From a virus (Duplodnaviria; Heunggongvirae; Uroviricota; Caudoviricetes): DNA of 17,337 nucleotides. Location: the IMG/VR virus record IMGVR_UViG_2778261161_000005; one strand, written 5' to 3'. Position 1 is the first letter of the stretch, and each line of letters opens with the position of its first letter. The notes below the pieces were generated by a model, which was given only the letters and a program-made list of their open reading frames with translations, was not told the origin of the DNA and did not search any database. A program made the position numbers and the translations under genes. Of this stretch, positions 2,496 through 16,036 are shown one piece after another.

Positions 2496-3170
2496 TTAGG
2501 CCTTTATTGTGTATCTTCTTGGTTTTCCCGAGAAAATCACTGTACCAATTATAGAGCAATTACCGTTAATCTTAATGTAAGGCTCAGGCCAGTTTGGGTT
2601 TAATGCTTTGAGATAACGCTGTGTTCCATCTTCTATCAATCGCTTGAAGGTGGTTTCGCCTGTATCGTGCATCAATGCAATAACGTCGTCACCGTGGCAG
2701 GCAGGGACTTCGGGATCAACAAAAATCATGTCTCCAGGGCGGTACTCATCAATCATTGAATCACCAATCACCCGCAAGATATAAGTCATTTCGCCACAGG
2801 GTACAGGGCAGGGATACGTTTCTGCTGTGCTCAAATCAACCTCAGAATAGCCAACTTCTTTCCATGCTCCGGCCTGTACCCATGATATGACAGGGACTAA
2901 CGTTATTTGTTTGTTAGTGATTGAAACATCAGGTTTTTTTGTGATGTTCGTTGTCTGGTGTTCTTGATCAAGCCATCCGACAGGCAGGTCGAAACATTTT
3001 TCGATGTGCCGTGCCATGCTGTCACCGATATTTTTAGTAGCGCCATCCCCCATAAACCTGCTGGTTTGGGTTGGCTCGCGATCAATCATGGTGGCAAAGG
3101 ATGAATTTCCGCCAACACCATCTCTCAGTTTTCTGGCGTTAGACCGCCGGATGTCATGGATTGTTTTCAT
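2496..3170 (-). CDS. prophage repressor, cI/LexA-like with C-terminal S24 peptidase domain (224 aa)
   Basis: C-terminal half carries the Ser (GDSM) and Lys (TFKRL) motifs of S24 self-cleaving repressors and a candidate Ala-Gly cleavage site (VQAGAW). Divergently arranged with a Cro-like gene. Confidence 0.8.
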   Translation of the reverse strand: MKTIHDIRRSNARKLRDGVGGNSSFATMIDREPTQTSRFMGDGATKNIGDSMARHIEKCFDLPVGWLDQEHQTTNITKKPDVSITNKQITLVPVISWVQAGAWKEVGYSEVDLSTAETYPCPVPCGEMTYILRVIGDSMIDEYRPGDMIFVDPEVPACHGDDVIALMHDTGETTFKRLIEDGTQRYLKALNPNWPEPYIKINGNCSIIGTVIFSGKPRRYTIKA

Positions 3171-3185
3171 AACGAAATTAAAACC

Positions 3186-3209
3186 TTTGTACCGATAAGG
3201 TACAAGTAC
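3186..3209. promoter_or_regulatory. operator-like overlapping palindromes in the repressor/cro divergent intergenic region
   Basis: TTGTACC-GATAA-GGTACAA (3186-3204) overlapping GGTAC-AA-GTACC (3198-3209); three GTAC cores spaced about 10 bp apart between the divergent repressor and cro starts. Confidence 0.45.
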
Positions 3210-3260
3210 CTTGAAGGTTCATTTCAATCATGTAATGTGTATACTGGAGGTACATATTGT

Positions 3261-3461
3261 ATGAAAGCGTATTGGGACTCTTTAACCAAAGAACAGCAGG
3301 GCGAGTTGGCCGGAAAAGTTGGCTCAACACCTGGCTACTTACGGCTGGTTTTCAATGGTTATAAAAAAGCCAGTTTTGTGCTGGCGAAAAAACTTGAGCA
3401 ATGCACGTCAGGTGCAATTACGAAATCTGACTTAAGACCGGATATCTACCGTGACATTTGA
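3261..3461 (+). CDS. Cro-like/YdaS-family small HTH regulator (66 aa)
   Basis: ATG at 3261 with GGAGG SD at 3246-3250; small protein with an HTH-like core (GELAGKVGSTPGYLRLV) and a C-terminal LRPDIY motif; divergent from the S24 repressor. The track ORF 3156..3461 is trimmed. Confidence 0.7.
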   Translation: MKAYWDSLTKEQQGELAGKVGSTPGYLRLVFNGYKKASFVLAKKLEQCTSGAITKSDLRPDIYRDI

Positions 3462-3550
3462 AGAGAAGTATGGCTCCCAACTGGAGCTGATATTTCGTTT
3501 TATCGATCGTGCGCTGGCAATTGGCGTACTGGCGTAAGTGGAGAACGAGC

Positions 3551-4303
3551 ATGAACCTTGAAGCCTTACCAAAATATTACTCCCCAAAATCTCCAAAATT
3601 GAGTGATGCCGCACCGGCGACAGGCTCAGGTGGTTTAACGATTACGGATGTGATGGCTGCGCAGGGGATGGTGCAGTCGAAAGCACCGCTTGGGTTTGCC
3701 TTATTCCTGGCAAAAGCTGGCGTTCAGGATCCTCAGTTTGCGATTGAAGGTCTGCTCAATTACGCGATGGCACTGGATAACCCGACATTGAACAAATTGA
3801 GTGAAGAAATCCGGTTACAGATCATCCCTTACCTTGTGAGTTTTGCCTTTGCTGATTATTCCAGGTCTGCGGCAAGTAAGGCTCGCTGTGAGCCTTGTGC
3901 TGGTACTGGATTTCATAATGTATTGCGCGAAGTGGTGAAATACTCCAGAAGCGGGGAGTCTGTTATCAAGGAAGAGTGGGTGAAGGAACTATGTCAGCAT
4001 TGTCATGGTAAGGGAGAAGTCAGCACAGCGTGCAGAGGGTGTAAGGGTAAAGGTATTGTCCTGGATGAAAAAAGGACCCGGCTTCATGGCGCGCCTGTTT
4101 ATAAGATTTGTGGGCGTTGCAATGGAAACCGGTTTAGTCGTTTACCAACGACACTGGCGCGGTGTCATGTCCAGAAGCTGGTACCAGACCTGACTGATTA
4201 TCAGTGGTACAAAGGATATGCAGATGTCATTGATAAACTGGTTACAAAGTGCTGGCAGGAAGAAGCATATGCTGAGGTGCAATTAAGAAAAGTGACGAGA
4301 TAA
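3551..4303 (+). CDS. quuQ: late-gene antitermination protein Q (QuuQ/QuuD-like, 250 aa)
   Basis: ATG at 3551 with GGAG SD; several Cys-x2-Cys pairs (CEPCAGTG, CQHCHGKG, CRGCKGKG, CGRCNGN) typical of phage-82-type Q proteins; immediately followed by a promoter plus terminator pair. The track ORF 3509..4303 is trimmed. Confidence 0.75.
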   Translation: MNLEALPKYYSPKSPKLSDAAPATGSGGLTITDVMAAQGMVQSKAPLGFALFLAKAGVQDPQFAIEGLLNYAMALDNPTLNKLSEEIRLQIIPYLVSFAFADYSRSAASKARCEPCAGTGFHNVLREVVKYSRSGESVIKEEWVKELCQHCHGKGEVSTACRGCKGKGIVLDEKRTRLHGAPVYKICGRCNGNRFSRLPTTLARCHVQKLVPDLTDYQWYKGYADVIDKLVTKCWQEEAYAEVQLRKVTR

Positions 4304-4334
4304 ATGATTTTCGCCGAAGATGGCGACGTAATGC

Positions 4335-4363
4335 TTGCATTTTTCAAAAAATATGGATAAAAT
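4335..4363 (+). promoter_or_regulatory. pR'-like late promoter
   Basis: TTGCAT (4335-4340), 17-nt spacer, TAAAAT (4358-4363), 32 bp downstream of the Q stop. Confidence 0.6.
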
Positions 4364-4408
4364 TTTTTCAACGATGGGCTTTATATACCCGACGTTAAGA
4401 AAAAGTAG

Positions 4409-4434
4409 AAAACCCGCTGATGAGCGGGTTTTTG
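4409..4434 (+). terminator. tR'-like rho-independent terminator
   Basis: Hairpin AACCCGC-TGATGA-GCGGGTT followed by TTTTT, about 45 nt downstream of the predicted pR' start site. Confidence 0.65.
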
Positions 4435-4718
4435 TGCTTTAAATAGGGTAATAGAGATGTTGAATCTCATTCCGGGATTCATGTTTGTTTACTTATTATT
4501 TATCGGGTGACTTTGCCTGATGTTTAAAATGTTTTCTTCCAGTACTATGTCCCTAGATACAATGAGTCTGCATATTACATTATTAGCAGAGCTATTACGG
4601 TCAAAGTACAGCATAAGCTTTTAAAGCCAATCAACCAGTCATCAAGACAGACGGGGTTATTCATGAAAACTCTCCATGTTTGATTCGATGGGGCCTGAAA
4701 TTAAAGCTTTAATATAGC

Positions 4719-4931
4719 TCATGAAAGGTAAACATTGGCAGCTGAAGGGCCACGCAGACCATTTATCCGGCAAAATTCCACGCGTAATCCGGTGGTAATT
4801 TCTTCTGCATCGCGGAGATTGAGCGCTGAAACATGAAGCTGGACATCGATACGACCATCGGATGGGGTGATAAGACCCTTGCCGCTTTTGCCGTCAAAGG
4901 TTTTGACAATTCCTGTCATTTTACGGGACAA
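4719..4931 (-). CDS. cspF: cold-shock-like protein CspF (70 aa)
   Basis: Translation [27 protein letters not shown]...[10 protein letters not shown] matches the CspF/CspH subfamily as recalled; divergent from cspB as in Qin. Confidence 0.85.
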
Positions 4932-5231
4932 AAAAATTCCTTAATACTGATAACTGGGCGCACTATACACACGTTCCTGAAGAAAGCTATAGTTTTTTGA
5001 TGGGGTTGAAGATGGCTGGATGTCTAAAATAAACATTGCTTCATATGTTCAACTATGCGTTAATGATTGCGTCGGTTTGAAGAACAGACGATATACGAAG
5101 TAGTTTACTAAAGCAGTTCTCATTTCAGGTGTTATTCACTTATTCCTTCTTTGAGTCTCTCCAATTAAGTACGAAGTCGTTTCTGTTATACAAGCCATTT
5201 ATGCCGAAAGGCTCAAGTTAAGGAATGTAGA

Positions 5232-5447
5232 ATGTCAAATAAAATGACTGGTTTAGTAAAATGGTTTAACGCTGATAAAGGTTTTGGCTTTATTTCTCCT
5301 GTTGATGGTAGTAAAGATGTGTTTGTGCATTTTTCTGCGATTCAGAATGATAATTTTCGAACCTTATTTGAAGGTCAAAAGGTTACCTTCTCTGTAGAGA
5401 GTGGTGCTAAAGGTCCTGCAGCAGCAAATGTCATAATTACTGATTAA
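5232..5447 (+). CDS. cspB: cold-shock protein CspB (71 aa)
   Basis: Translation [38 protein letters not shown]... carries the RNP1 (KGFGFI) and RNP2 (VFVHF) motifs; about 270 nt of upstream leader-length DNA as in cspA-family genes. Confidence 0.9.
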
Positions 5448-5728
5448 AATTCATAGTTTGTCTGTATACGATAACGAAGAAGGCTGATGCCTGAGTGGAG
5501 ATACAGACAGAGTGGTGAATATTGGATCTCTTTAATAAATAGTAAGGAGGTCCAATACATGAAACAATGGCCAGCATATTTGGCAATAACTTAATCAGGA
5601 AAAGTATGCTAACCATTGTGGTGAAGTGCAGGTTTGCTGCATGAATAGTTTTACAGCAGAAGCTAACTGCTGGCATAGCAAAACAAAGTGCGTAAGTGGA
5701 TGACTCCCACAAAAAGTACCACAATATT

Positions 5729-5752
5729 AAACCCGCTCAGGCGGGTTTTTTA
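5729..5752. terminator. rho-independent terminator, possibly bidirectional
   Basis: Hairpin AACCCGC-TCAG-GCGGG followed by TTTTTT on the plus strand and a shorter U-run on the minus strand; lies between the cspB region and the convergent minus-strand zinc-ribbon ORF. Confidence 0.55.
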
Positions 5753-5810
5753 TTATCTGCTTTAAATATGTTATTAAAATATAAAAAATACTTGTTACGA
5801 ATAAAATCAA

Positions 5811-6032
5811 TCAAGCTACAGCTTTAAGATTTGTCTGGAATACTTTGTTGCAATGAGGGCAGATCAAAAGGGCACCTTTTTGTACTCTTGAAAAACTGTG
5901 TTCTGACTCTTGGGTGCAGTTTGGGCAGGAACATTTAACGAGATAATTACGGCGTGATTTTGAGTCTTTACGTTCTGACATAGGCTTTTCCTGTATAAAT
6001 GGCCGTATACAGTACACTAAATATGAAAACAT
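5811..6032 (-). CDS. small basic zinc-ribbon protein (CxxC...CxxC), function unknown; the start may be the internal ATG at 5979-5981 (56 aa)
   Basis: Track ORF; two CxxC pairs (CPNC, CPHC) and a basic N-terminus (SERKDSKSRR). The internal ATG has a better SD (AGGAAA) than the first ATG. Confidence 0.45.
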   Translation of the reverse strand: MFSYLVYCIRPFIQEKPMSERKDSKSRRNYLVKCSCPNCTQESEHSFSRVQKGALLICPHCNKVFQTNLKAVA

Positions 6033-6199
6033 ATCTCGTATTATTATTTAATATATGATTTTCTTTTAAAATAATTACCCACATTTTTAATGTGTCTGTT
6101 TTTTAGCGCCGTTGAGAACAACGTTTGCTATAAAAACTAACCCATAGACTCCGATCTTTTCAAACATATTGCACCATCTGTGTACATCGGGGTGAGGAT

Positions 6200-6415
6200 A
6201 TGAAATCAATGGATAAGTTAACAACAGGTATCGCCTATGGCACATCGGCTGGTAATGCTGGTTTCTGGGCATTGCAGTTACTCGATAAAGTAACTCCGTC
6301 ACAGTGGGCTGCAATCGGTGTGCTGGGTAGTCTGGTTTTTGGCCTGCTGACGTATCTGACAAACCTTTATTTCAAGATTAAAGAAGACAGGCGTAAGGTT
6401 GCGAGAAGAGAGTAA
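6200..6415 (+). CDS. essQ: class II (phage-21 S-like) holin/pinholin with dual-start motif
   Basis: Translation [28 protein letters not shown]... is 71 aa with two hydrophobic segments and a charged C-terminus; the MKSM N-terminus gives two possible starts (Met1/Met4); lies directly upstream of the lysis genes. Confidence 0.85.
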
Positions 6416-6419
6416 TCCA

Positions 6420-6971
6420 ATGACACAAGACTATGAACTGGTTGTGAAAGGAGTCCGCAATTTTGAGAATAAAGTGGCGGTAACTGTAGCCTTACGGGAC
6501 AAAAAACGCTTTGACGGTGAAATTTTTGACCTGGACATCTCGCTGGACCGTGTTGAAGGTGCCGCGCTGGAGTTTTATGAGGCAGCAGCCAGAATGAGAA
6601 TCAGACAGGTATTCCTGGATGTTGCTGCCGGGTTATGTGTAGGGGATGAGCAGTCGCCGGAAAAGCGCCCCATAATTTTAGAGGCGCAGAATGTGTGGAT
6701 AACCTACAAAGGAAAGCTACCGGGAAGAATTACTGGTTCTCTGAAGACGCCACCGACGGCATTGCGGTCAGAAAAAGATGATATTGAATCGCCCATTGAA
6801 AAACTGGAGGGCAGCGTCGCTGATCTGAATAAAAAATTGTCGGTGCTGATCCCTTCTGAAGATGAAAAAAAACGCCGCGATGAGCAGTTTGCGGCGTTTT
6901 ACGATTATTGCATTGAAGTTACTCGCAGGAATTTTGTGAAGATTTTTGAGGAGGGTAAATCTCTTCAGTAA
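6420..6971 (+). CDS. YdfR-like (DUF1327) lysis-cassette protein with a long C-terminal extension
   Basis: ATG at 6420 (MTQDYELVVKGVRNFENK...) with its SD inside the holin 3' end; the N-terminal roughly 100 aa resemble YdfR as recalled. The track start at 6399 is a TTG inside the holin gene. Confidence 0.6.
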   Translation: MTQDYELVVKGVRNFENKVAVTVALRDKKRFDGEIFDLDISLDRVEGAALEFYEAAARMRIRQVFLDVAAGLCVGDEQSPEKRPIILEAQNVWITYKGKLPGRITGSLKTPPTALRSEKDDIESPIEKLEGSVADLNKKLSVLIPSEDEKKRRDEQFAAFYDYCIEVTRRNFVKIFEEGKSLQ

Positions 6972-7179
6972 GCTTAATGGCGGACGCTGCAATTAATTCA
7001 GGAAGGTCCGCAAGGTCATCTGTCAGTGGATATGATGAAAAATCGGCGGCAGTTCTGTTAAGAAGCGCTTTAACTAATTCCTTTTCCTTCTCCGGCAACA
7101 AGTTGATTAGAGCTACGACTGCTTGCCTGAGTGCGATTAAATCAGCAAAAGTTTGTTTTGGTAGATTTGTGTAATCCAT
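6919..7179 (-). CDS. hypothetical small helical protein, antisense within the lysis cassette (about 86 aa)
   Basis: Minus-strand ORF with ATG at 7177-7179 preceded by AGAGGTG SD; the track start at 7185 is a GTG. It occupies the 320-bp gap between the YdfR-like gene and the lysozyme gene and overlaps the YdfR-like 3' end by about 50 nt. No recognisable family. Confidence 0.35.
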   Translation of the reverse strand: MDYTNLPKQTFADLIALRQAVVALINLLPEKEKELVKALLNRTAADFSSYPLTDDLADLPELIAASAIKLTEEIYPPQKSSQNSCE

Positions 7180-7292
7180 AGTCACCTCTGTGTTTATCAG
7201 ATTGACATCCTCCTCCCGCCAGTGCCCATCACTGGTGAGGTAAGATTTAACATATCCGGGGATTTGAAGCCGATAAATCCTGATAAATATCC

Positions 7293-8320
<1,028 letters not shown>

Positions 8321-8683
8321 ATTAATATTAAATCGGATTATTTTTAGCGCTGAATGTGAAATTTAAATAAAAAGGACTCTTCCATGAGTCAAAATCCTTG
8401 AAATCTTAAGGGTAAGATAAAAGGTCATTAGACAGAATGACACGTTTTATTAATAAATAAAGCTATTGTTTCATTCGTGTGTTTTTCTTTACAAAAGTAA
8501 TCCTTGCTATGGTTGGTTAATCATGCGTTAATGGTGTTCTGGTTTGTTACAAAATTATCTGAAGCAGTCATTGTTATAATTTTATTATTTGTACCTCTTG
8601 AGATCTCCTTGTTGGTTTTTCTCTCTGATATTTTTTTTCGGACCATTCTGCCCAAGGGCTAACTTCTTCAAAAGGTAATAATG

Positions 8684-8896
8684 ATGTCTAACAAAATGAC
8701 TGGTTTAGTGAAATGGTTTAACCCTGAAAAAGGTTTTGGTTTCATCACGCCGAAAGATGGTAGCAAAGATGTGTTTGTCCATTTCTCAGTTATTCAGAGC
8801 AACGATTTCAAAACGTTAACTGAGAATCAGGAAGTCGAATTTGGTATTGAGAACGGACCTAAAGGCCCCGCGGCTGTTCATGTAGTGGCACTTTGA
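8684..8896 (+). CDS. cspI: cold-shock protein CspI (70 aa)
   Basis: Translation [45 protein letters not shown]... matches CspI as recalled; about 360 nt of upstream leader-length DNA. The track starts one codon earlier (8681). Confidence 0.9.
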
Positions 8897-9100
8897 GGTA
8901 GAAAATATTACAAACCATATTCACTTTAGATGCCCGTGTTGCCATGGTTCTCAGTATAGAACATCATCTTTTGATGTTTCTGACAGGAATCCTTTCGGGG
9001 CAAAATGTATCTTTTGTAAATCAATGATGATTACATTTGATAATATTTCACAATACTTAAATGTTAGCCGTCTGTCGTTAGATTTAAGAAAGTGAAAATG

Positions 9101-9124
9101 AAGGCTCCTTCGGGAGCTTTTTTG
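9101..9124 (+). terminator. rho-independent terminator downstream of cspI
   Basis: Hairpin GCTCC-TTCG-GGAGC followed by TTTTTT. Confidence 0.6.
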
Positions 9125-9167
9125 CTTAGTGTCTAGTCGATGGATACTCACATATTACGGTAACATT

Positions 9168-9398
9168 ATGAAAAAAATAATAGTTTTTTTTAACTCTGAA
9201 CCAGCAATGGTAGTGCCAGTGATGACCGGAGTTAACACCATCATGCGTGAATATCCAAATGGCGAAACAACACACCTCACTGTAATGGCTGCAGGGTTTC
9301 CATCTCTGACCGGAGATCATAAAGTCATTTATGTAGCAGCGGATCGACATGTAACTTCAGAAGAAATTCTGGAAGCAGCAATGAGACTCTTGAATTGA
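9168..9398 (+). CDS. small prophage protein, possibly YnfN-like (about 76 aa)
   Basis: Internal ATG (MKKIIVFFNSEPAMVV...) of track ORF 9129..9398; position between cspI and gnsB as in Qin; family assignment is from memory only. Confidence 0.4.
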   Translation: MKKIIVFFNSEPAMVVPVMTGVNTIMREYPNGETTHLTVMAAGFPSLTGDHKVIYVAADRHVTSEEILEAAMRLLN

Positions 9399-9567
9399 TT
9401 TGATTCTAATGCATTGATAATAAATGATAATCATCTTTATCTGTTTGTGTGAAATTTAGACCGTCGTATGTTGATTATTGCGATGTTTCATCTTATCTTT
9501 TATACGTTTGCTCCATATAATTGACACTACTGTGTACCAGGAAAGTCATAACAGACTAAAAGAGGAA

Positions 9568-9744
9568 ATGATGAACATTGAAGAGTTAAAAACAAAAACA
9601 GAAGCAGATATTTCTGAATATATAACAAAAAAAATCATTGAGCTTAAGAAAAAGACCGGGAAAGAAGTTACCAGTATCCAGTTTACTGCACGGGAAAAAA
9701 TGACTGGTCTTGAAAGCTATGATATCAAGATTGATTTAATCTAG
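9568..9744 (+). CDS. gnsB: GnsA/GnsB-family small protein (58 aa)
   Basis: Translation MMNIEELKTKTEADISEYITKKIIELKKKTGKEVTSIQFTAREKMTGLESYDIKIDLI with AAGAGGAA SD upstream; matches the Gns family as recalled. The track ORF 9478..9744 is trimmed. Confidence 0.75.
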   Translation: MMNIEELKTKTEADISEYITKKIIELKKKTGKEVTSIQFTAREKMTGLESYDIKIDLI

Positions 9745-9805
9745 TATGTTTATAGTATTAGCATCAATTTCTCATCAGATGCTATTCAACAATACAAATT
9801 ACCCA

Positions 9806-9832
9806 TAAACCTCGTTTTTACGGGGTTTTGTT
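9806..9832 (+). terminator. probable terminator downstream of gnsB
   Basis: Hairpin AACCTCG-TTTTTA-CGGGGTT (one G-U pair) followed by a T-rich run. Confidence 0.35.
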
Positions 9833-10039
9833 ATATTTAAACATTACCGAATAGATATAAATCTCGATTGTCGATGGTATTGGTTGTGTGACAATACCTA
9901 GTCTTTCCGGTATGCCTGAAGAGAATACAAACGACAGATTATGTAAGGGAAACGCGCTGAAACTTTCACTCTTTCATGCTGAGTGATTTGACGTTATATT
10001 TTTAGCCGCAAGTGAAGAGCAAACGCATGGAGCGACAAA

Positions 10040-10246
10040 ATGCATAAAGATCAATACACTGATGCCCCCTCCCAGGAGCAGGTTCGTGTAAAAACTATGC
10101 TTAATAGCACCATTTCGATGGGTTACCCGGATGTTGTAATTGCATGTATAGAACATCAAGTATCTCTGGAAGCATTCAGGGCAATTGAGGCCGCGTTAGT
10201 AAAGCACGATAAGAATACGAAGGATTATTCCCTGGTGGTTGACTGA
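10040..10246 (+). CDS. hypothetical small prophage protein (68 aa)
   Basis: Track ORF in the position occupied by ynfO/ydfO in Qin; I do not recognise the sequence. Confidence 0.35.
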
Positions 10247-10589
10247 TCACCATAACTGCTAACCATTCTGACCATTTCACAAGTGACAGAGTCAATATCG
10301 TATTCTGTCACTGTCAGGCTAATACAGTACTGCAATTCAACTACAGCAATGCCTCGTATTTAGGTGAATTTACAATATCGTCCAGTTCGGATGCCGGCTG
10401 CATTTCTGAAGATAAGGCATTTCGGTTCGCGTATTTTCCCCTCATGCTCGTCAGTCCTGCGCGTAGTAAGAAACAGGACACTCACACTAATTTGTGTGGG
10501 CATGCTGTGATGTCCTTCTGAATTATCCCCACGCCATTATGTAAAGCTCTGTTTCAGATGCTCGTCACGGTTGTCAGGCTGTCGGGTCC

Positions 10590-10630
10590 TCCCTGGGGGG
10601 GGCCCTGCCACGGGGCGGGAGCGTCGCGGA
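10590..10630. other. cos-like site (putative cosN) in a GC-rich island upstream of the small terminase gene
   Basis: ACGGGGCGGGAGCGTCGCGG (10610-10629) resembles the lambda cohesive-end region (…ACGGGGCGGCGACCTCGCGG…) as recalled. It lies about 170 bp upstream of the Nu1-like gene and is followed by inverted repeats ATGTCGAA / TTCGACAT (10712-10741) in the position of cosB. Confidence 0.45.
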
Positions 10631-10798
10631 AAAAGGCTAGTTTTTGCATTTTTATCGGCCACCATCATCTTTGCATCTTATTGATTATTAATGGTTGTTT
10701 GTTTTTTGTATGTCGAATTGAGTGTTTTTTGTTCGACATCGAACGCGTTTTCTTAAAGTTGTTCGCACGATGCATGTTTAAAGCTCTCCGGAGGAAAT

Positions 10799-11290
10799 AT
10801 GGATCATGAGTTGAAAAACCTGGTGCTGAATATTAATCAACTGGCGGCTTTATCTGGTCTGCACCGCCAGACTGTCGTGGCAAGACTGAAAAACATTCGT
10901 CCCGCTGGTGGACATGACAAACTCAAGCTATACCGGTTGACCGATATTCTGACTGAATTTATGGGGTTACCACCGCCGGTTGCTGAGGGCGAAATGGATC
11001 CACATGAACGCAAAGCCTGGTATCAGTCTGAACGTGAGCGTCTTAAGTTCGAACAGGAAACGGCACAACTCATTCCGGCCAGTGATGTCAGACGGGAGTT
11101 TGCCATCTGGGCAAAAGCGGTCGTGCAGGTGCTGGAGACATTACCGGATATTCTGGAACGTGACTGCGGCCTGCAGCCTGCCGCTGTGAGCCGTGTTCAG
11201 TCCATTATTGATGATCTGCGCGATCAGATAGCCCTGCGGGTGACCGAAGCAGGTGCGGATGATGAGGAGGAATTACAGCAGGAGGAGTAA
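10799..11290 (+). CDS. terminase small subunit, Nu1-like (NohA/NohD-type), 163 aa
   Basis: N-terminal winged-HTH pattern (NINQLAALSGLHRQTVVARLKN...GG...KLYRLTDIL) like lambda Nu1; acidic C-terminus; preceded by the cos-like site; stop overlaps the next ATG. Confidence 0.65.
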   Translation: MDHELKNLVLNINQLAALSGLHRQTVVARLKNIRPAGGHDKLKLYRLTDILTEFMGLPPPVAEGEMDPHERKAWYQSERERLKFEQETAQLIPASDVRREFAIWAKAVVQVLETLPDILERDCGLQPAAVSRVQSIIDDLRDQIALRVTEAGADDEEELQQEE

Positions 11291-11790
11291 TGCTGAATCA
11301 GGAAACCGCAAAGGCAGCACGAACCGATTCAGGTTATATCCTTCGCGCACCGAGACGAATGCGGGTTGCTGATGCCGTTGCTCAGTATATGCGGGTGAAA
11401 GACCGGGTGAATAACGCGTTATGGCGTGACTCGCCAGGTCCCGGCTATGTGCATTTCCCTGACTGGCTGGGGAGCTGGTTTTACGACGAACTGACGTATG
11501 AAGAGCGGAGCAGTGACGGGAAATGGAGTAAGCCGGGTCGCGGTGCCAACGAAGCTTTTGACCTGATGGTGTATGCCGAGGCTCTGGTCATTCTGCATGG
11601 ATACGAAAAGATCCGCTGGCCGGATGCACCGGAGTGGGCGAGCCGGGAAACCTGGCTGGAGTGTGTCCCGGACAGTACCGAACCGTCACCCACACCGGAA
11701 CCGGTATCCACGCCTGTTAAAAAACAAAAACGGAAGAAAACAGTAACTGACGATGTTAACCCCTGGCTGACTTCCGGAGGATGGTTATGA
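11290..11790 (+). pseudogene. terminase large subunit remnant (gpA-like C-terminal region only, 166 codons)
   Basis: Translation aligns to the C-terminal roughly 130 aa of lambda gpA as recalled (PGYVHFP vs PGAVHFP; RGANEAFDLMVYAEAL vs RRNEALDCFVYALAAL). The ATPase and nuclease core domains expected in a roughly 640-aa protein are absent. Confidence 0.6.
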
Positions 11791-11999
11791 ACCAGAATGA
11801 TATCGAAGCCATGATTCAGCGTTATACGGAAGCTGAAATGGCGGTGCTGGACGGAAAATCCGTCACCTTTAATGGTCAGCAGATGACCATGGAAAACTTA
11901 TCTGAGATCCGGCAGGGACGGCAGGAGTGGGAGCGCCGCCTTGCGGCTCTGATTACACGACGACGGGGGCATCCCGGGTACCGGCTTGCGAGGTTCTGA
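11787..11999 (+). CDS. head-to-tail joining protein, gpW-like (about 70 aa)
   Basis: Small ORF between terminase and portal, as lambda W is; ATG at 11787 with GGAGG upstream; stop overlaps the portal ATG (TGATG). Confidence 0.6.
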   Translation: MNQNDIEAMIQRYTEAEMAVLDGKSVTFNGQQMTMENLSEIRQGRQEWERRLAALITRRRGHPGYRLARF

Positions 12000-13507
12000 T
12001 GGCAATTCTTGATGATGTGATTGGCGTTTTTTCACCAGGATGGAAAGCGGCAAGGCTGCGTTCCCGTGCGGTGATCCAGGCTTATGAGGCCGTAAAAACG
12101 ACGCGGACACACAAAGCCCGGCGGGAAAACCGAACTGCCGACCAGTTAAGCCAGTACGGGGCCGTGTCGTTACGTGAGCAGGCCCGTTACCTTGATAACA
12201 ACCACGATCTGGTCATTGGTGTATTTGACAAGCTGGAAGAACGGGTGGTGGGGAAAAACGGGATTATTGTCGAGCCACATCCGGTATTACGCAATGGGGC
12301 CATTGCCCGTGATCTGGCAGCGGAGATACGCACCCGATGGAGTGAATGGTCTGTCAGTCCGGAAGTCACCGGGCAGTTTACCCGTCCGATGCTGGAACGT
12401 CTGATGTTGCGTACCTGGCTGCGCGATGGTGAGGTGTTTGCCCAGATGGTTTCCGGGCGCATAAACAGCCTGACGCCTTCTGCCGGTGTTCATTTCTGGC
12501 TGGAGGCGCTCGAGCCGGACTTTATTCCCATGACCAGTGATGAGAGCAACAGGCTGAATCAGGGCGTGTTTGTTGATGACTGGGGGCGTCCCGAAAAATA
12601 TCTGGTGTATAAAAGCCGTCCCGTATCCGGACGGCAGATGGAAACCAAAGAAGTGGATGCAGAGCGAATGCTGCATCTTAAATTTGTTCGCCGTCTGCAC
12701 CAGATGCGCGGGACGTCTTTGTTGTCCGGTGTGCTGATCCGCCTCAGTGCCCTGAAAGAGTATGAAGATTCTGAGCTGACTGCAGCAAGGATCGCCGCTG
12801 CTCTGGGGATGTACATCCGGAAAGGCGACGGGCAGAGCTATGAACCGGATGGTAATGGCAGCAAGGATAAGGAACGCGAGCTTACCATTCAGCCAGGCAT
12901 TATTTACGACGATCTGAAACCCGGCGAAGAAATCGGAATGGTGAAGTCGGATCGCCCCAATCCTAATCTTGAAACTTTTCGTAATGGTCAGTTGCGTGCC
13001 GTGGCGGCGGGCAGTCGTCTGAGTTTTTCCAGTACAGCGCGCAACTATAACGGCACTTACAGCGCCCAGCGTCAGGAGCTGGTTGAATCCACTGATGGCT
13101 ACCTGATCCTGCAGGACTGGTTTATTGGTGCCGTCACCCGCCCGATGTATCGTGCCTGGCTGAAACAGGCTGTGGCATCCGGTGTTATCAGGCTACCCCG
13201 CGATCTTGATCGTTCTTCACTGTATACCGCGGTGTATTCCGGACCGGTGATGCCGTGGATTGACCCTGTTAAGGAGGCTGAGGCCTGGAAAATTCAGATT
13301 CGTGGTGGAGCGGCGACAGAATCAGACTGGGTACGTGCAGGTGGTCGTAATCCGGATGATGTCAAACGTCGGCGCAAGGCCGAAATTGATGAAAACCGCA
13401 AGCTGGATCTGGTATTTGATACCGATCCGGCCAGTGATAAAGGAGGCAGCAGTGCCGCAACGAAACGACAGGAGCCGCAGCACACCGACGACCAGTCCGA
13501 AGAATAA
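11999..13507 (+). CDS. portal protein (lambda gpB family), about 502 aa
   Basis: Long ORF directly after the W-like gene, with the size and position expected for a lambda-like portal; ATG at 11999 ([11 protein letters not shown]...). The track ORF 11927..13507 is trimmed. Confidence 0.7.
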
Positions 13508-13520
13508 TTCCTGGTTCAGG

Positions 13521-15461
13521 ATGCAGGCAGGTCACCAGAGTGACGCGGATATTTATATTTATGACGAGATTGGTTTCTGGGGTGTTACGGCGAAGCAGTT
13601 TATCAGTGATCTGAATGCACTGGGCGATATCACCCACATTAAGGGACGCTTCCTGAACAACATTAACGCGGTCAGTAAAACAGACTTTGCTGATAAGCGT
13701 GGTATGCGTTATGTGCGGGTTAACGCTCCTGCAGGTGCAACATCTGGAAAATATTACCCTGTTGTTGTTATGCGTTCTGCTGGCTCAGTAAGCGAACTGG
13801 CATCAAGGGTCATTATCACCACGGCAACGCGAACCGCAGGCGATCCGATGAATAACTGCGAGTTTAACGGATTTGTTATGCCTGGTGGCTGGACTGACAG
13901 GGGGCGTTATGCTTATGGAATGTTCTGGCAATATCAAAACAATGAACGAGCCATCCACTCAATAATGATGAGTAATAAGGGCGATGATTTGCGCTCTGTG
14001 TTCTATGTTGATGGCGCTGCTTTCCCTGTTTTTGCGTTTATCGAAGATGGCCTGTCAATATCCGCACCTGGTGCTGATCTCGTTGTTAATGATACGACCT
14101 ATAAGTTTGGGGCAACAAATCCAGCGACTGAATGTATCGCGGCGGACGTTATCCTTGATTTTAAGAGTGGGCGTGGTTTTTATGAGTCTCATTCGTTAAT
14201 CGTTAACGATAACTTGTCGTGCAAAAAACTTTTTGCCACAGACGAAATTGTAGCGCGTGGTGGTAATCAGATTCGAATGATAGGTGGGGAGTATGGTGCA
14301 TTATGGCGTAATGATGGCGCTAAAACTTACCTGCTGCTTACCAATCAAGGTGATGTTTATGGTGGCTGGAATACATTAAGACCGTTTGCTATTGATAACG
14401 CAACCGGCGAGCTGGTTATTGGAACCAAACTGTCCGCAAGTCTGAACGGTAATGCATTAACAGCAACAAAGCTGCAAACGCCAAGACGGGTTTCTGGTGT
14501 TGAGTTTGATGGTTCCAAAGATATTACTTTAACCGCCGCGCATGTGGCTGCTTTTGCCAGAAGAGCAACGGATACGTATGCCGATGCGGATGGGGGCGTT
14601 CCATGGAATGCCGAATCAGGCGCTTACAATGTCACCCGCTCTGGCGACAGCTATATTCTGGTTAACTTCTATACCGGAGTCGGAAGTTGCCGGACCCTGC
14701 AGATGAAGGCGCATTACAGAAATGGAGGTCTGTTCTACCGTTCCTCAAGAGATGGCTATGGTTTTGAGGAAGACTGGGCAGAAGTTTATACCTCGAAAAA
14801 TCTTCCACCAGAAAGCTACCCAGTCGGCGCACCAATCCCGTGGCCATCAGATACCGTTCCGTCTGGTTATGCCCTGATGCAGGGGCAGACTTTTGACAAA
14901 TCTGCATACCCGAAACTTGCAGCCGCTTATCCGTCAGGCGTGATCCCTGATATGCGTAGCTGGACGATTAAGGGCAAACCTGCCAGTGGTCGGGCCGTAT
15001 TGTCTCAGGAACAGGACGGCATTAAATCGCACACCCACAGCGCCAGCGCATCCAGTACGGATTTGGGGACGAAAACCACATCGTCGTTTGATTACGGCAC
15101 TAAATCCACGAATAACACCGGGGCGCATACGCACAGTGTGAGCGGTACAGCCGCAAGTGCCGGAAACCATACTCATAGTGTCACAGGCGCATCAGCAGTC
15201 AGCCAGTGGTCACAAAATGGGTCAGTACATAAGGTAGTGTCTGCGGCCAGTGTGAATACAAGTGCTGCAGGAGCGCACACTCATAGTGTTAGCGGCACAG
15301 CCGCATCTGCAGGTGCTCACGCACATACTGTCGGTATTGGTGCTCATACGCACTCTGTTGCGATTGGCTCACATGGACACACTATCACCGTTAACGCTGC
15401 TGGTAACGCGGAAAACACCGTCAAAAACATCGCATTTAACTACATTGTGAGGCTTGCATAA
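13521..15461 (+). CDS. chimeric ORF: ClpP-type prohead protease N-terminus (about 37 aa) fused in frame to a side tail fibre protein (Stf-like)
   Basis: First ATG after the portal stop; the N-terminus [28 protein letters not shown] matches the start of ClpP-family prohead proteases, then the sequence switches to tail-fibre-like repeats and ends with a tail-collar region ([42 protein letters not shown]), His-rich HxH repeats and [11 protein letters not shown]. The track ORF 13260..15461 overlaps the portal in another frame. Confidence 0.65.
15121..15313 (+). repeat. imperfect direct repeats of about 43 bp within the stf 3' region
   Basis: GGGCGCATACGCACAGTGTGAGCGGTACAGCCGCAAGTGCCGG (15121-15163) and GGAGCGCACACTCATAGTGTTAGCGGCACAGCCGCATCTGCAGG (15270-15313), both encoding [15 protein letters not shown]. 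Confidence 0.7.
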
Positions 15462-16036
15462 TGGCATTCAGAATGAGTGAACAACCACGGACCATAAAAA
15501 TTTATAATCTGCTGGCCGGAACTAATGAATTTATTGGTGAAGGTGACGCATATATTCCGCCTCATACAGGTCTGCCAGCAAACAGTACCGATATTGCACC
15601 GCCAGATATTCCGGCAGGCTTCGTGGCTGTTTTCAACAGTGATGAGGCATCGTGGCATCTCGTTGAAGACCATCGGGGTAAAACGGTTTATGACGTAGCG
15701 TCAGGGGACGCGTTATTTATTTCTGAACTCGGTCCGTTACCGGAAAATGTTACCTGGTTATCGCCGGAAGGGGAGTTTCAGAAGTGGAACGGCACAGCCT
15801 GGGTGAAAGATGCAGAAGCAGAAAAACTGTTCCGGATCCGGGAGGCGGAAGAAACAAAAAACAGCCTGATGCAGGTAGCCAGTGAGCATATTGCGCCGCT
15901 TCAGGATGCTGCAGATCTGGAAATTGCAACGGAGGAAGAAATCTCGTTGCTGGAAGCATGGAAAAAGTATCGGGTATTGCTGAACCGTGTTGATACGTCA
16001 ACTGCACAGGATATTGAATGGCCAGCACTGCCGTAG
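15461..16036 (+). CDS. tail fibre assembly protein (Tfa), 191 aa
   Basis: Translation [39 protein letters not shown]... matches TfaQ/TfaR-type proteins as recalled; start overlaps the stf stop (TAATG). Confidence 0.85.

Follow-up and report, generated by a model that had tools for sequence, protein, structure and literature searches.

The open reading frame at positions 11290-11790 (+ strand) of the 17,337-nucleotide stretch analysed here (hereafter, the window) encodes 166 aa. We believe, with high confidence, that it is the relic of a 700-aa large terminase (TerL) of the gpA type after one in-frame deletion of codons 37-570, which probably arose via microhomology-primed joining. The deletion is not a random event, since it starts at a recurrent breakpoint: the position just after TerL nt 108 (...GCGGGTG|) is common to about 45 distinct deletions in E. 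coli prophages. This refines the preliminary description of the locus, which had presented the deletion as such.

The window is the remnant of a Qin-like lambdoid prophage. It starts with a YfdQ-like gene, an S24 repressor and a cro-like gene, continues with a Q antiterminator, cspF/cspB, holin, lysozyme, Rz, cspI and gnsB, passes to the late region with a cos-like site, a small terminase (TerS) gene of the DUF1441 family, the 166-aa ORF, a gpW-like adaptor and a lambda-family portal, and ends with a tail-fibre ORF, a tail-fibre assembly gene and a Pin-type invertase. A fuller form of this prophage is present at the yjjG-prfC locus in E. coli GPEC1222 and in many other strains. In a BLAST comparison with the GPEC1222 locus the window falls into three collinear blocks of 99.9-100% identity, the reference having an extra 5,408 bp between the first and second blocks and an extra 1,602 bp between the second and third; a fourth block lies about 16.1 kb further along.

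The first gap (5,408 bp; junction at 3447..3451, + strand) corresponds to the removal of replication and early genes between the cro-like and DUF968 genes. The third deletion (about 16.1 kb; junction at 13626-13642) occurred at an imperfect homology of about 17 nt and left no capsid and tail genes; in the resulting in-frame fusion (13452..15461, + strand), protease/capsid codons 1-64 are followed by the C-terminal 605 aa or so of the side tail fibre. Three deletions in all mark this lambdoid prophage of the yjjG-prfC locus. It is dead because the two deletions other than that in TerL took the early region and the capsid-to-tail genes, and its decay is recent, considering that all three deletions sit in DNA that is otherwise 99.9-100% identical to GPEC1222. 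The window as such was found in none of 5,426 complete E. coli genomes. Contig NTPM01000023.1 of the NCBI assembly GCA_002463805.1 matches it without a difference over 16,048 nt; on this contig the element is followed by a dinI-like gene and prfC.

Several other features of the window can be mentioned here. The S24 repressor, Q antiterminator, holin, lysozyme and Rz genes (2496-8320) look intact, and the replication, capsid and tail genes are gone; given the intact-looking lysis genes, SOS induction could still kill the host. Rfam models of cspA thermoregulator leaders match at 5071-5510 and 8537-8942, upstream of the cspB- and cspI-like genes, and the Rfam IS009 family matches at 15804-16002 inside the tail-fibre assembly gene (221 bits).

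The middle gap defines the ORF under study. Segments 3447-11397 and 11396-13642 of the window are each 100% identical to the intact GPEC1222 prophage, and the 1,602 bp lying between them in the reference are 534 codons (TerL aa 37-570), so the reading frame is kept. The ORF is thus TerL aa 1-36 fused to aa 571-700. The retained 5' stump (nt 1-108; 11290..11397, + strand) ends with ...CAGTATATGCGGGTG and is 100% identical to positions 25703-25810 of locus L003. The right-hand part (codons 571-700 and the stop; 11398..11790, + strand) contains the last 74 or so residues of the nuclease domain and the C-terminal tail, and is 100% identical to L003 27413-27805; its product aligns to the C-terminus of lambda gpA, including the NEA(L/F)D..VYA motif. 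The junction itself, GCGGGTG|AAAGACC (11396..11398, + strand), has a 2-nt microhomology (TG), as follows from the 2-nt overlap of the BLAST segments and from reading the parent flanks. At its start, the ATG of the ORF overlaps the TAA of the upstream DUF1441 gene (GGAGGAGTAATG) and is preceded by GGAGGAG.

In protein sequence the intact TerL of GPEC1222 is about 100% identical to its counterpart in mEp460, a viable phage; its identity to lambda gpA is 28%. Pfam assigns to it the GpA_ATPase domain at aa 41-304, with the Walker A motif GPARTGKT at aa 73-80, and the GpA_nuclease domain at aa 326-644, where all profile positions (1-294) are matched. Pfam gives a single match for the 166-aa ORF, GpA_nuclease (E = 6e-20), in which residues 34-110 cover profile positions 211-294 of 294; Pfam and a Walker A scan gave neither an ATPase-domain match nor a Walker A motif in the remnant, and GPARTGKT is present in the full-length TerL only. 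The whole ATPase domain and nuclease profile positions 1 to about 210 were lost with the 1,602-bp gap; about 70% of the nuclease domain is gone and the last 28% or so of its profile is kept. A functional large terminase of the gpA type is expected to have both an ATPase domain with Walker A and a complete nuclease domain; the remnant has neither. Its position between the small terminase and the adaptor and portal genes is the expected one, and its length is 166 aa as against 700 (about 640-700 aa in the family).

The largest possible product of the ORF, of 19 kDa, has neither an ATPase domain nor a complete nuclease domain. Judging by its domain content, the predicted protein should be capable neither of cutting cos nor of translocating DNA, because both the ATPase and a complete nuclease domain are absent. 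An AlphaFold model of it, built from 26 sequences of similar length, is of low confidence (mean pLDDT 48), and a search by sequence for a relative of solved structure found none. In tblastn against phage genomes, residues 19-166 align with the C-terminal 150 aa or so of the 700-aa TerL proteins of mEp460 and cdtI (86-90% identity) and of phages related to them, which supplies the terminase alignment coordinates that the preliminary description had proposed to establish. That description regarded the ORF as a C-terminal remnant of gpA starting at a normal operon-junction ATG after a Nu1-like gene, with the catalytic regions missing, in agreement with an internal deletion. The start codon, the loss of catalytic regions and the internal deletion are all borne out, the last one by the proposed comparison with the homologous locus of a related strain: GPEC1222 has the intact gene and flanks 100% identical to those of the window. 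The remnant itself was described correctly in part: the last 130 aa or so are exactly TerL residues 571-700, and the first 36 residues turned out to be the authentic N-terminus of TerL.

The neighbouring packaging genes are preserved. The small terminase (163 aa; 10799..11290, + strand; Pfam PF07278, E = 5e-44) is intact and identical to the GPEC1222 protein. The gpW-like head-tail adaptor (70 aa; 11787..11999, + strand) is likewise intact and identical to that of GPEC1222; it has a weak DUF6148 match, and its mEp460 counterpart is annotated as a head-tail adaptor. The same is true for the lambda-family portal (502 aa; 11999..13507, + strand; Phage_portal_2, E = 6.5e-82), also identical to its GPEC1222 counterpart. 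A candidate cosN, CCACG GGGCGGGAGCGT CGCGG, is located at 10608..10629 (+ strand), 190 nt upstream of TerS; it was recognised by reading the sequence against the lambda left end, ACG GGGCGGCGACCT CGCGG, and was assigned on its similarity to that end. The statements that Nu1, W and portal are intact and that cos is kept thus hold, the latter for a lambda-like sequence that is a putative cosN. The further proposal, of an element unable to package itself, is borne out by the loss of the TerL catalytic domains and by another deletion that removed the capsid and tail genes.

That errors of assembly or annotation produced the ORF, or that it represents a small protein family of its own as a complete member, is in our opinion hardly conceivable, even though NCBI lists the protein as an ordinary one (WP_274539543.1, “terminase gpA endonuclease subunit”). 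The allele was seen on about 10 contigs; the exact 166-aa protein comes from two NCBI assemblies, several SRA runs and two ENA metagenomes, always with the same junction. Since the same allele occurs in independent assemblies (NCBI, Logan, ENA), the junction is not an artefact, and an overlap of 2 nt cannot produce a misjoin. A single intact gene matches the two halves without a difference. A small family should have conserved ends across diverged lineages; the relatives of similar length are mixed fragments with unrelated, heterogeneous N- and C-termini, mostly labelled “partial” at the source, so that the alternative of a small family raised in the preliminary description was looked for and not found. 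What is found is what one expects of a pseudogene: a deletion mapped from an intact gene with identical flanks in an element that lost other essential functions. A Logan contig (P0001) carries a 162-aa variant in which KDRV is absent at the junction (window 11398-11409); this looks like a secondary 12-nt slippage between two CGGGTG copies, which the deletion of the window placed 6 nt apart.

Another possibility is that the remnant is a working mini-protein with a dominant-negative effect on the packaging of superinfecting phages of the mEp460/cdtI type, i.e., a prophage-encoded exclusion. Lambda gpA binds gpNu1 through its first 48 or so residues and the prohead through the last 32 or so. The mini-protein keeps the TerS-proximal N-terminus and the portal-proximal C-terminus of TerL with no catalytic part between them; the fusion is in frame, and the strong Shine-Dalgarno sequence and the translational coupling to TerS are kept. 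Because the ribosome binding site, the coupling and the frame have been preserved, the product may be made, and it could still bind TerS or the portal. Nevertheless, we consider an exclusion function quite unlikely. The allele is rare (none of the 5,426 complete genomes), its 100% identity to the parent makes it too recent for selection to be visible, the reading frame is kept in only about one third of the sister deletions from this anchor, and the structure model is of the low confidence given above.

We return to the TerL relic and to its left breakpoint. About 45 different fusion proteins start with TerL aa 1-36 (MLNQ...AQYMRV) and diverge right after V36; other breakpoints within the first 160 TerL codons number about 13. 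The count of 45 comes from protein searches, which covered the short relatives of the remnant and used the first 121 and the first 40 residues of the intact TerL. What follows V36 may be another part of TerL, the portal C-terminus, the DUF2190 decoration protein, gpM-, gpL- or gpJ-like tail proteins, Lom, tail fibres or an out-of-frame sequence; one of the anchored fusions is from E. fergusonii. All 25 mappable continuations are on the same strand of the intact prophage, from 285 bp (0.28 kb) to 21.7 kb downstream. The far ends differ, and we therefore regard the events as independent. The smallest anchored deletion, from nt 108 to TerL nt ~392, was observed in locus L154 (Logan SRR33768432, 2501-4195), about 260 bp upstream of an IS3-family insertion in the same TerL gene.

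Fifteen of the junctions were read as DNA, and in each of them the left side ends with GCGGGT, GCGGGTG or GCGGGTGC. Twelve of these have a mapped right-hand parent and display a microhomology of 1-7 nt; the parent has T at position -1 in 11 of the 12 and then G in most. The prophages hosting the 15 junctions have TerS regions that are 85-100% identical, and their neighbouring genes differ. TerL nt 1-108 are 100% conserved in most lineages. Thus, a deletion and a recurrent one-sided anchor with short microhomology are observed.

A control independent of gene calling was made by walking 200-nt probes along the intact sequence (locus L014, where TerL starts at 1567) in the 5,426 complete genomes. 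The probe at 1275-1474 has 1,471 copies, that at 1475-1674, which ends at TerL nt 108, 1,464 copies, that at 1675-1874, 1,434 copies, and that at 2200-2399, 1,428 copies; the drop of 30 copies (about 2%) falls exactly at nt 108. The right flank is present in 1,360 genomes, which is also the number with both flanks contiguous; hence, there is essentially no genome with the right flank only and none with an insert. The match of a 43-nt probe over the site ends at GCGGGTG in 21 genomes. In total, about 28 complete genomes carry a truncated allele, with K_EC180, ES2 and O15_8X among the matches listed; in K_EC180 and ES2 the 108-nt stump is annotated by PGAP as a truncated hypothetical protein. 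A full-text literature search found no prior description of such a deletion hot spot.

The reading frame deserves a separate comment. Over all anchored junctions about one third are in frame, which equals the chance expectation, and the in-frame state of the window's allele is therefore most simply a matter of chance. Among the 25 mapped junctions 13-14 are in frame; in our judgement, this excess is due to the easier detection of long ORFs.

We infer that the deletion originated by microhomology-primed illegitimate joining. The 3' end of the top strand would be fixed at ...GCGGGT(G), i.e., at TerL nt 107-108; its last 1-7 nt would pair with a downstream site, and the paired end would be extended, with the DNA in between dropped. 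The same anchored event would then have taken place about 45 times in E. coli prophages with this terminase. The 3' end might be fixed by a site-specific nick, by polymerase arrest or by something else. A further step is tempting, and we propose it tentatively, with more doubt than belief: in prophages of the mEp460/cdtI type an unrecognised factor (such as a nickase, a recombinase, a satellite or defence function) could break a strand site-specifically, or arrest replication, at nt 108 of TerL, which would repeatedly trigger a one-directional loss of the morphogenesis genes and would amount to a dedicated disarming of the prophage with lysis, cos and TerS kept.

Several explanations of the anchor were considered and rejected. 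A hairpin or cruciform at the site finds no support: folds of the two strands give z = +0.6 and -0.1 against shuffles, and there is no long inverted repeat; the break is at the foot of a small GCCC/GGGC hairpin, and such hairpins are commonplace. CRISPR self-targeting was dismissed, as the 43-nt probe matched terminase loci only (in 1,352 of the 5,426 genomes, fewer than carry the gene). A secondary cosN site was set aside because the sequence at nt 108 is, by eye, unlike the cosN half-sites of the phage. DNA gyrase cleaves at the consensus RT|GNYNNY, and the site fits it; however, subunit exchange predicts GCCC from the left site in half of the joints, and it was seen in none of the 15. Neither a mosaic boundary nor an unusual conservation distinguishes nt 108, the whole stretch from -350 to +100 being low in variation. 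A hot spot shared with the A genes of the lambda type is contradicted by the K-12 prophages, where DLP12 breaks at codon ~103 and Qin at codon 3.

The Chi sequence (GCTGGTGG) occurs 36 nt downstream of the anchor (L014 1710-1717, TerL nt 144-151) and is deleted in the window. Its orientation protects the left side from RecBCD arriving from the late genes; TerS-TerL contains three Chi sequences of this orientation, and the late operon has no oppositely oriented one. Trimming by RecBCD up to Chi could contribute to the asymmetry of the deletions, and it leaves the nucleotide precision on the far side of Chi unexplained.

The pattern resembles that of IS excision. According to the accounts in PMC9943667, which cites Kusumoto et al. 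2011, and in bioRxiv 10.1101/2023.06.07.543989, excision dependent on the IS-excision enhancer (IEE) yields deletions of a few nt to more than 40 kb next to the IS; the same two sources attribute to IEE microhomology-mediated end joining and describe a strand-switch model that starts at the 3'-OH of the flank at the IS end. In excision by the transposase with IEE, as it is presented there (Kusumoto et al. 2011, via PMC9943667), one end is likewise fixed, the far end varies up to tens of kb, and the joint has microhomology. The deletion could then be a by-product of the excision of an IS3-, IS1- or IS30-family element inserted after nt 108 and removed together with a right flank of variable length; the fixed end, the one-sidedness and the microhomology of 1-7 nt all fit, and the one-sided deletions that such a process should leave are indeed found. 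We nevertheless judge it improbable, since the anchor, unlike that in IS excision, has no IS in any allele examined. The equal counts of the right flank and of contiguous flanks (1,360 genomes) leave no IS-bearing allele, pattern scans, in which a foreign base was sought either right after GCGGGTG or in front of CCCATGG..., returned only deletion alleles or nothing, and an IS fragment is left at none of the 15 DNA junctions. Moreover, this origin would call for repeated insertion at a single nucleotide across lineages with 6-15% divergence in their TerS regions.

Satellites also have to be weighed. Those integrating into the late genes of prophages have been described (Tommasini, Mageeney and Williams 2023, PMC10111431), and PICI attR sites in tRNA genes adjoin variable-length deletions with a fixed start (PMC10111431). 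The deletion might accordingly be tied to a helper-embedded satellite (of the HE-PICI type), through its faulty excision or through helper-satellite recombination between cos-TerS copies. E. coli EC42405 provides a relevant case: an element of about 10.7 kb with an integrase and its own DUF1441 TerS lies inside the same TerL gene, at nt ~990, and one of the anchored deletions (L024/P0092) ends inside the att core of this element. We find this origin very unlikely for the TerL relic: no element at nt 108 was seen, the remaining right ends are scattered over the late operon and not limited to a few att sites, satellite DNA is present at no junction, and both flanks in the window are 100% resident prophage. 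None of the features of an HE-PICI (integrase, AlpA and replication genes between the gene halves) was found between the TerL halves of the window.

The EC42405 element merits a description of its own. It is located in a Qin-like prophage (L160, NZ_CP043414.1 2478000-2511000; 19880-32682 of the locus), its genes are oriented like TerL, and its att core is about TTCTGGATG. It encodes a tyrosine integrase, an HTH protein, BRO-N, Icd-like and DUF4222 proteins, a RepA-family helicase, SSB, a protease/capsid fusion and a DUF1441 TerS. The element fits the helper-embedded PICI type: the described layout and the late-gene orientation (PMC10111431) are found in it, at a site different from the anchor. 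The terminase sites named in that paper (A_Terminase_1_132, A:Terminase_1:245) refer to the Terminase_1 profile and not to a gpA-type gene, and “GpA” is absent from its supplementary files.

As for known relatives, the remnant derives from the gpA family (GpA_ATPase PF05876 and GpA_nuclease PF20454; mEp460 gp02, cdtI, lambda gpA) and is not a functional member of it. Its residues 1-36 and 37-166 are identical to the respective ends of one 700-aa member, the intact TerL described above, and the gene order cos, TerS, TerL, W, portal is the same in the window and in phages of this family; unlike the family, the remnant is devoid of 534 internal residues. In K-12, aaaD (DLP12) and A'-stfQ (Qin) are likewise A stumps that come after a Nu1-type gene and are deletion-fused to a late gene in a decayed lambdoid prophage. 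Those stumps are of A genes of the lambda type, fused to tfaD after codon ~103 in DLP12 and to stf after codon 3 in Qin; the two breakpoints have no anchor in common with each other or with the window, and the right end in the window is, unlike theirs, back inside TerL itself.

The terminase pseudogene taken alone is ordinary prophage decay, comparable to aaaD of DLP12. Prophage decay is usually modelled as random deletion with selection; here, about 2% of the copies of a common E. coli terminase gene are truncated from one nucleotide in one direction. If a defined lesion is the cause, the locus would offer a tractable natural system for the study of illegitimate recombination, and the high frequency of cos-TerS stumps in E. 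coli genomes would be explained. Annotation pipelines, which now call the products “terminase gpA endonuclease subunit” or “hypothetical protein”, could flag the hot-spot deletion alleles.

Two minor observations concern the same gene. In many database proteins (P0209-P0221, P0242, P0256), minor frameshifts occur no more than a few codons away from the hot spot, in the run GCGGGTGCCCATGGGGGCC (L014 1660-1700, which is TerL nt ~95-130 of intact alleles); either sequencing errors in homopolymers or small scars of repair at the same lesion could account for them. Other terminase fusions recur as well (proteins P0062, P0065, P0067, P0019): TerL at about aa 667 (...PDSTEPS) is joined to Lom in three variants, and in a more distant lineage the DUF1441 TerS at about aa 88 is joined to the C-terminal 155 aa or so of TerL.
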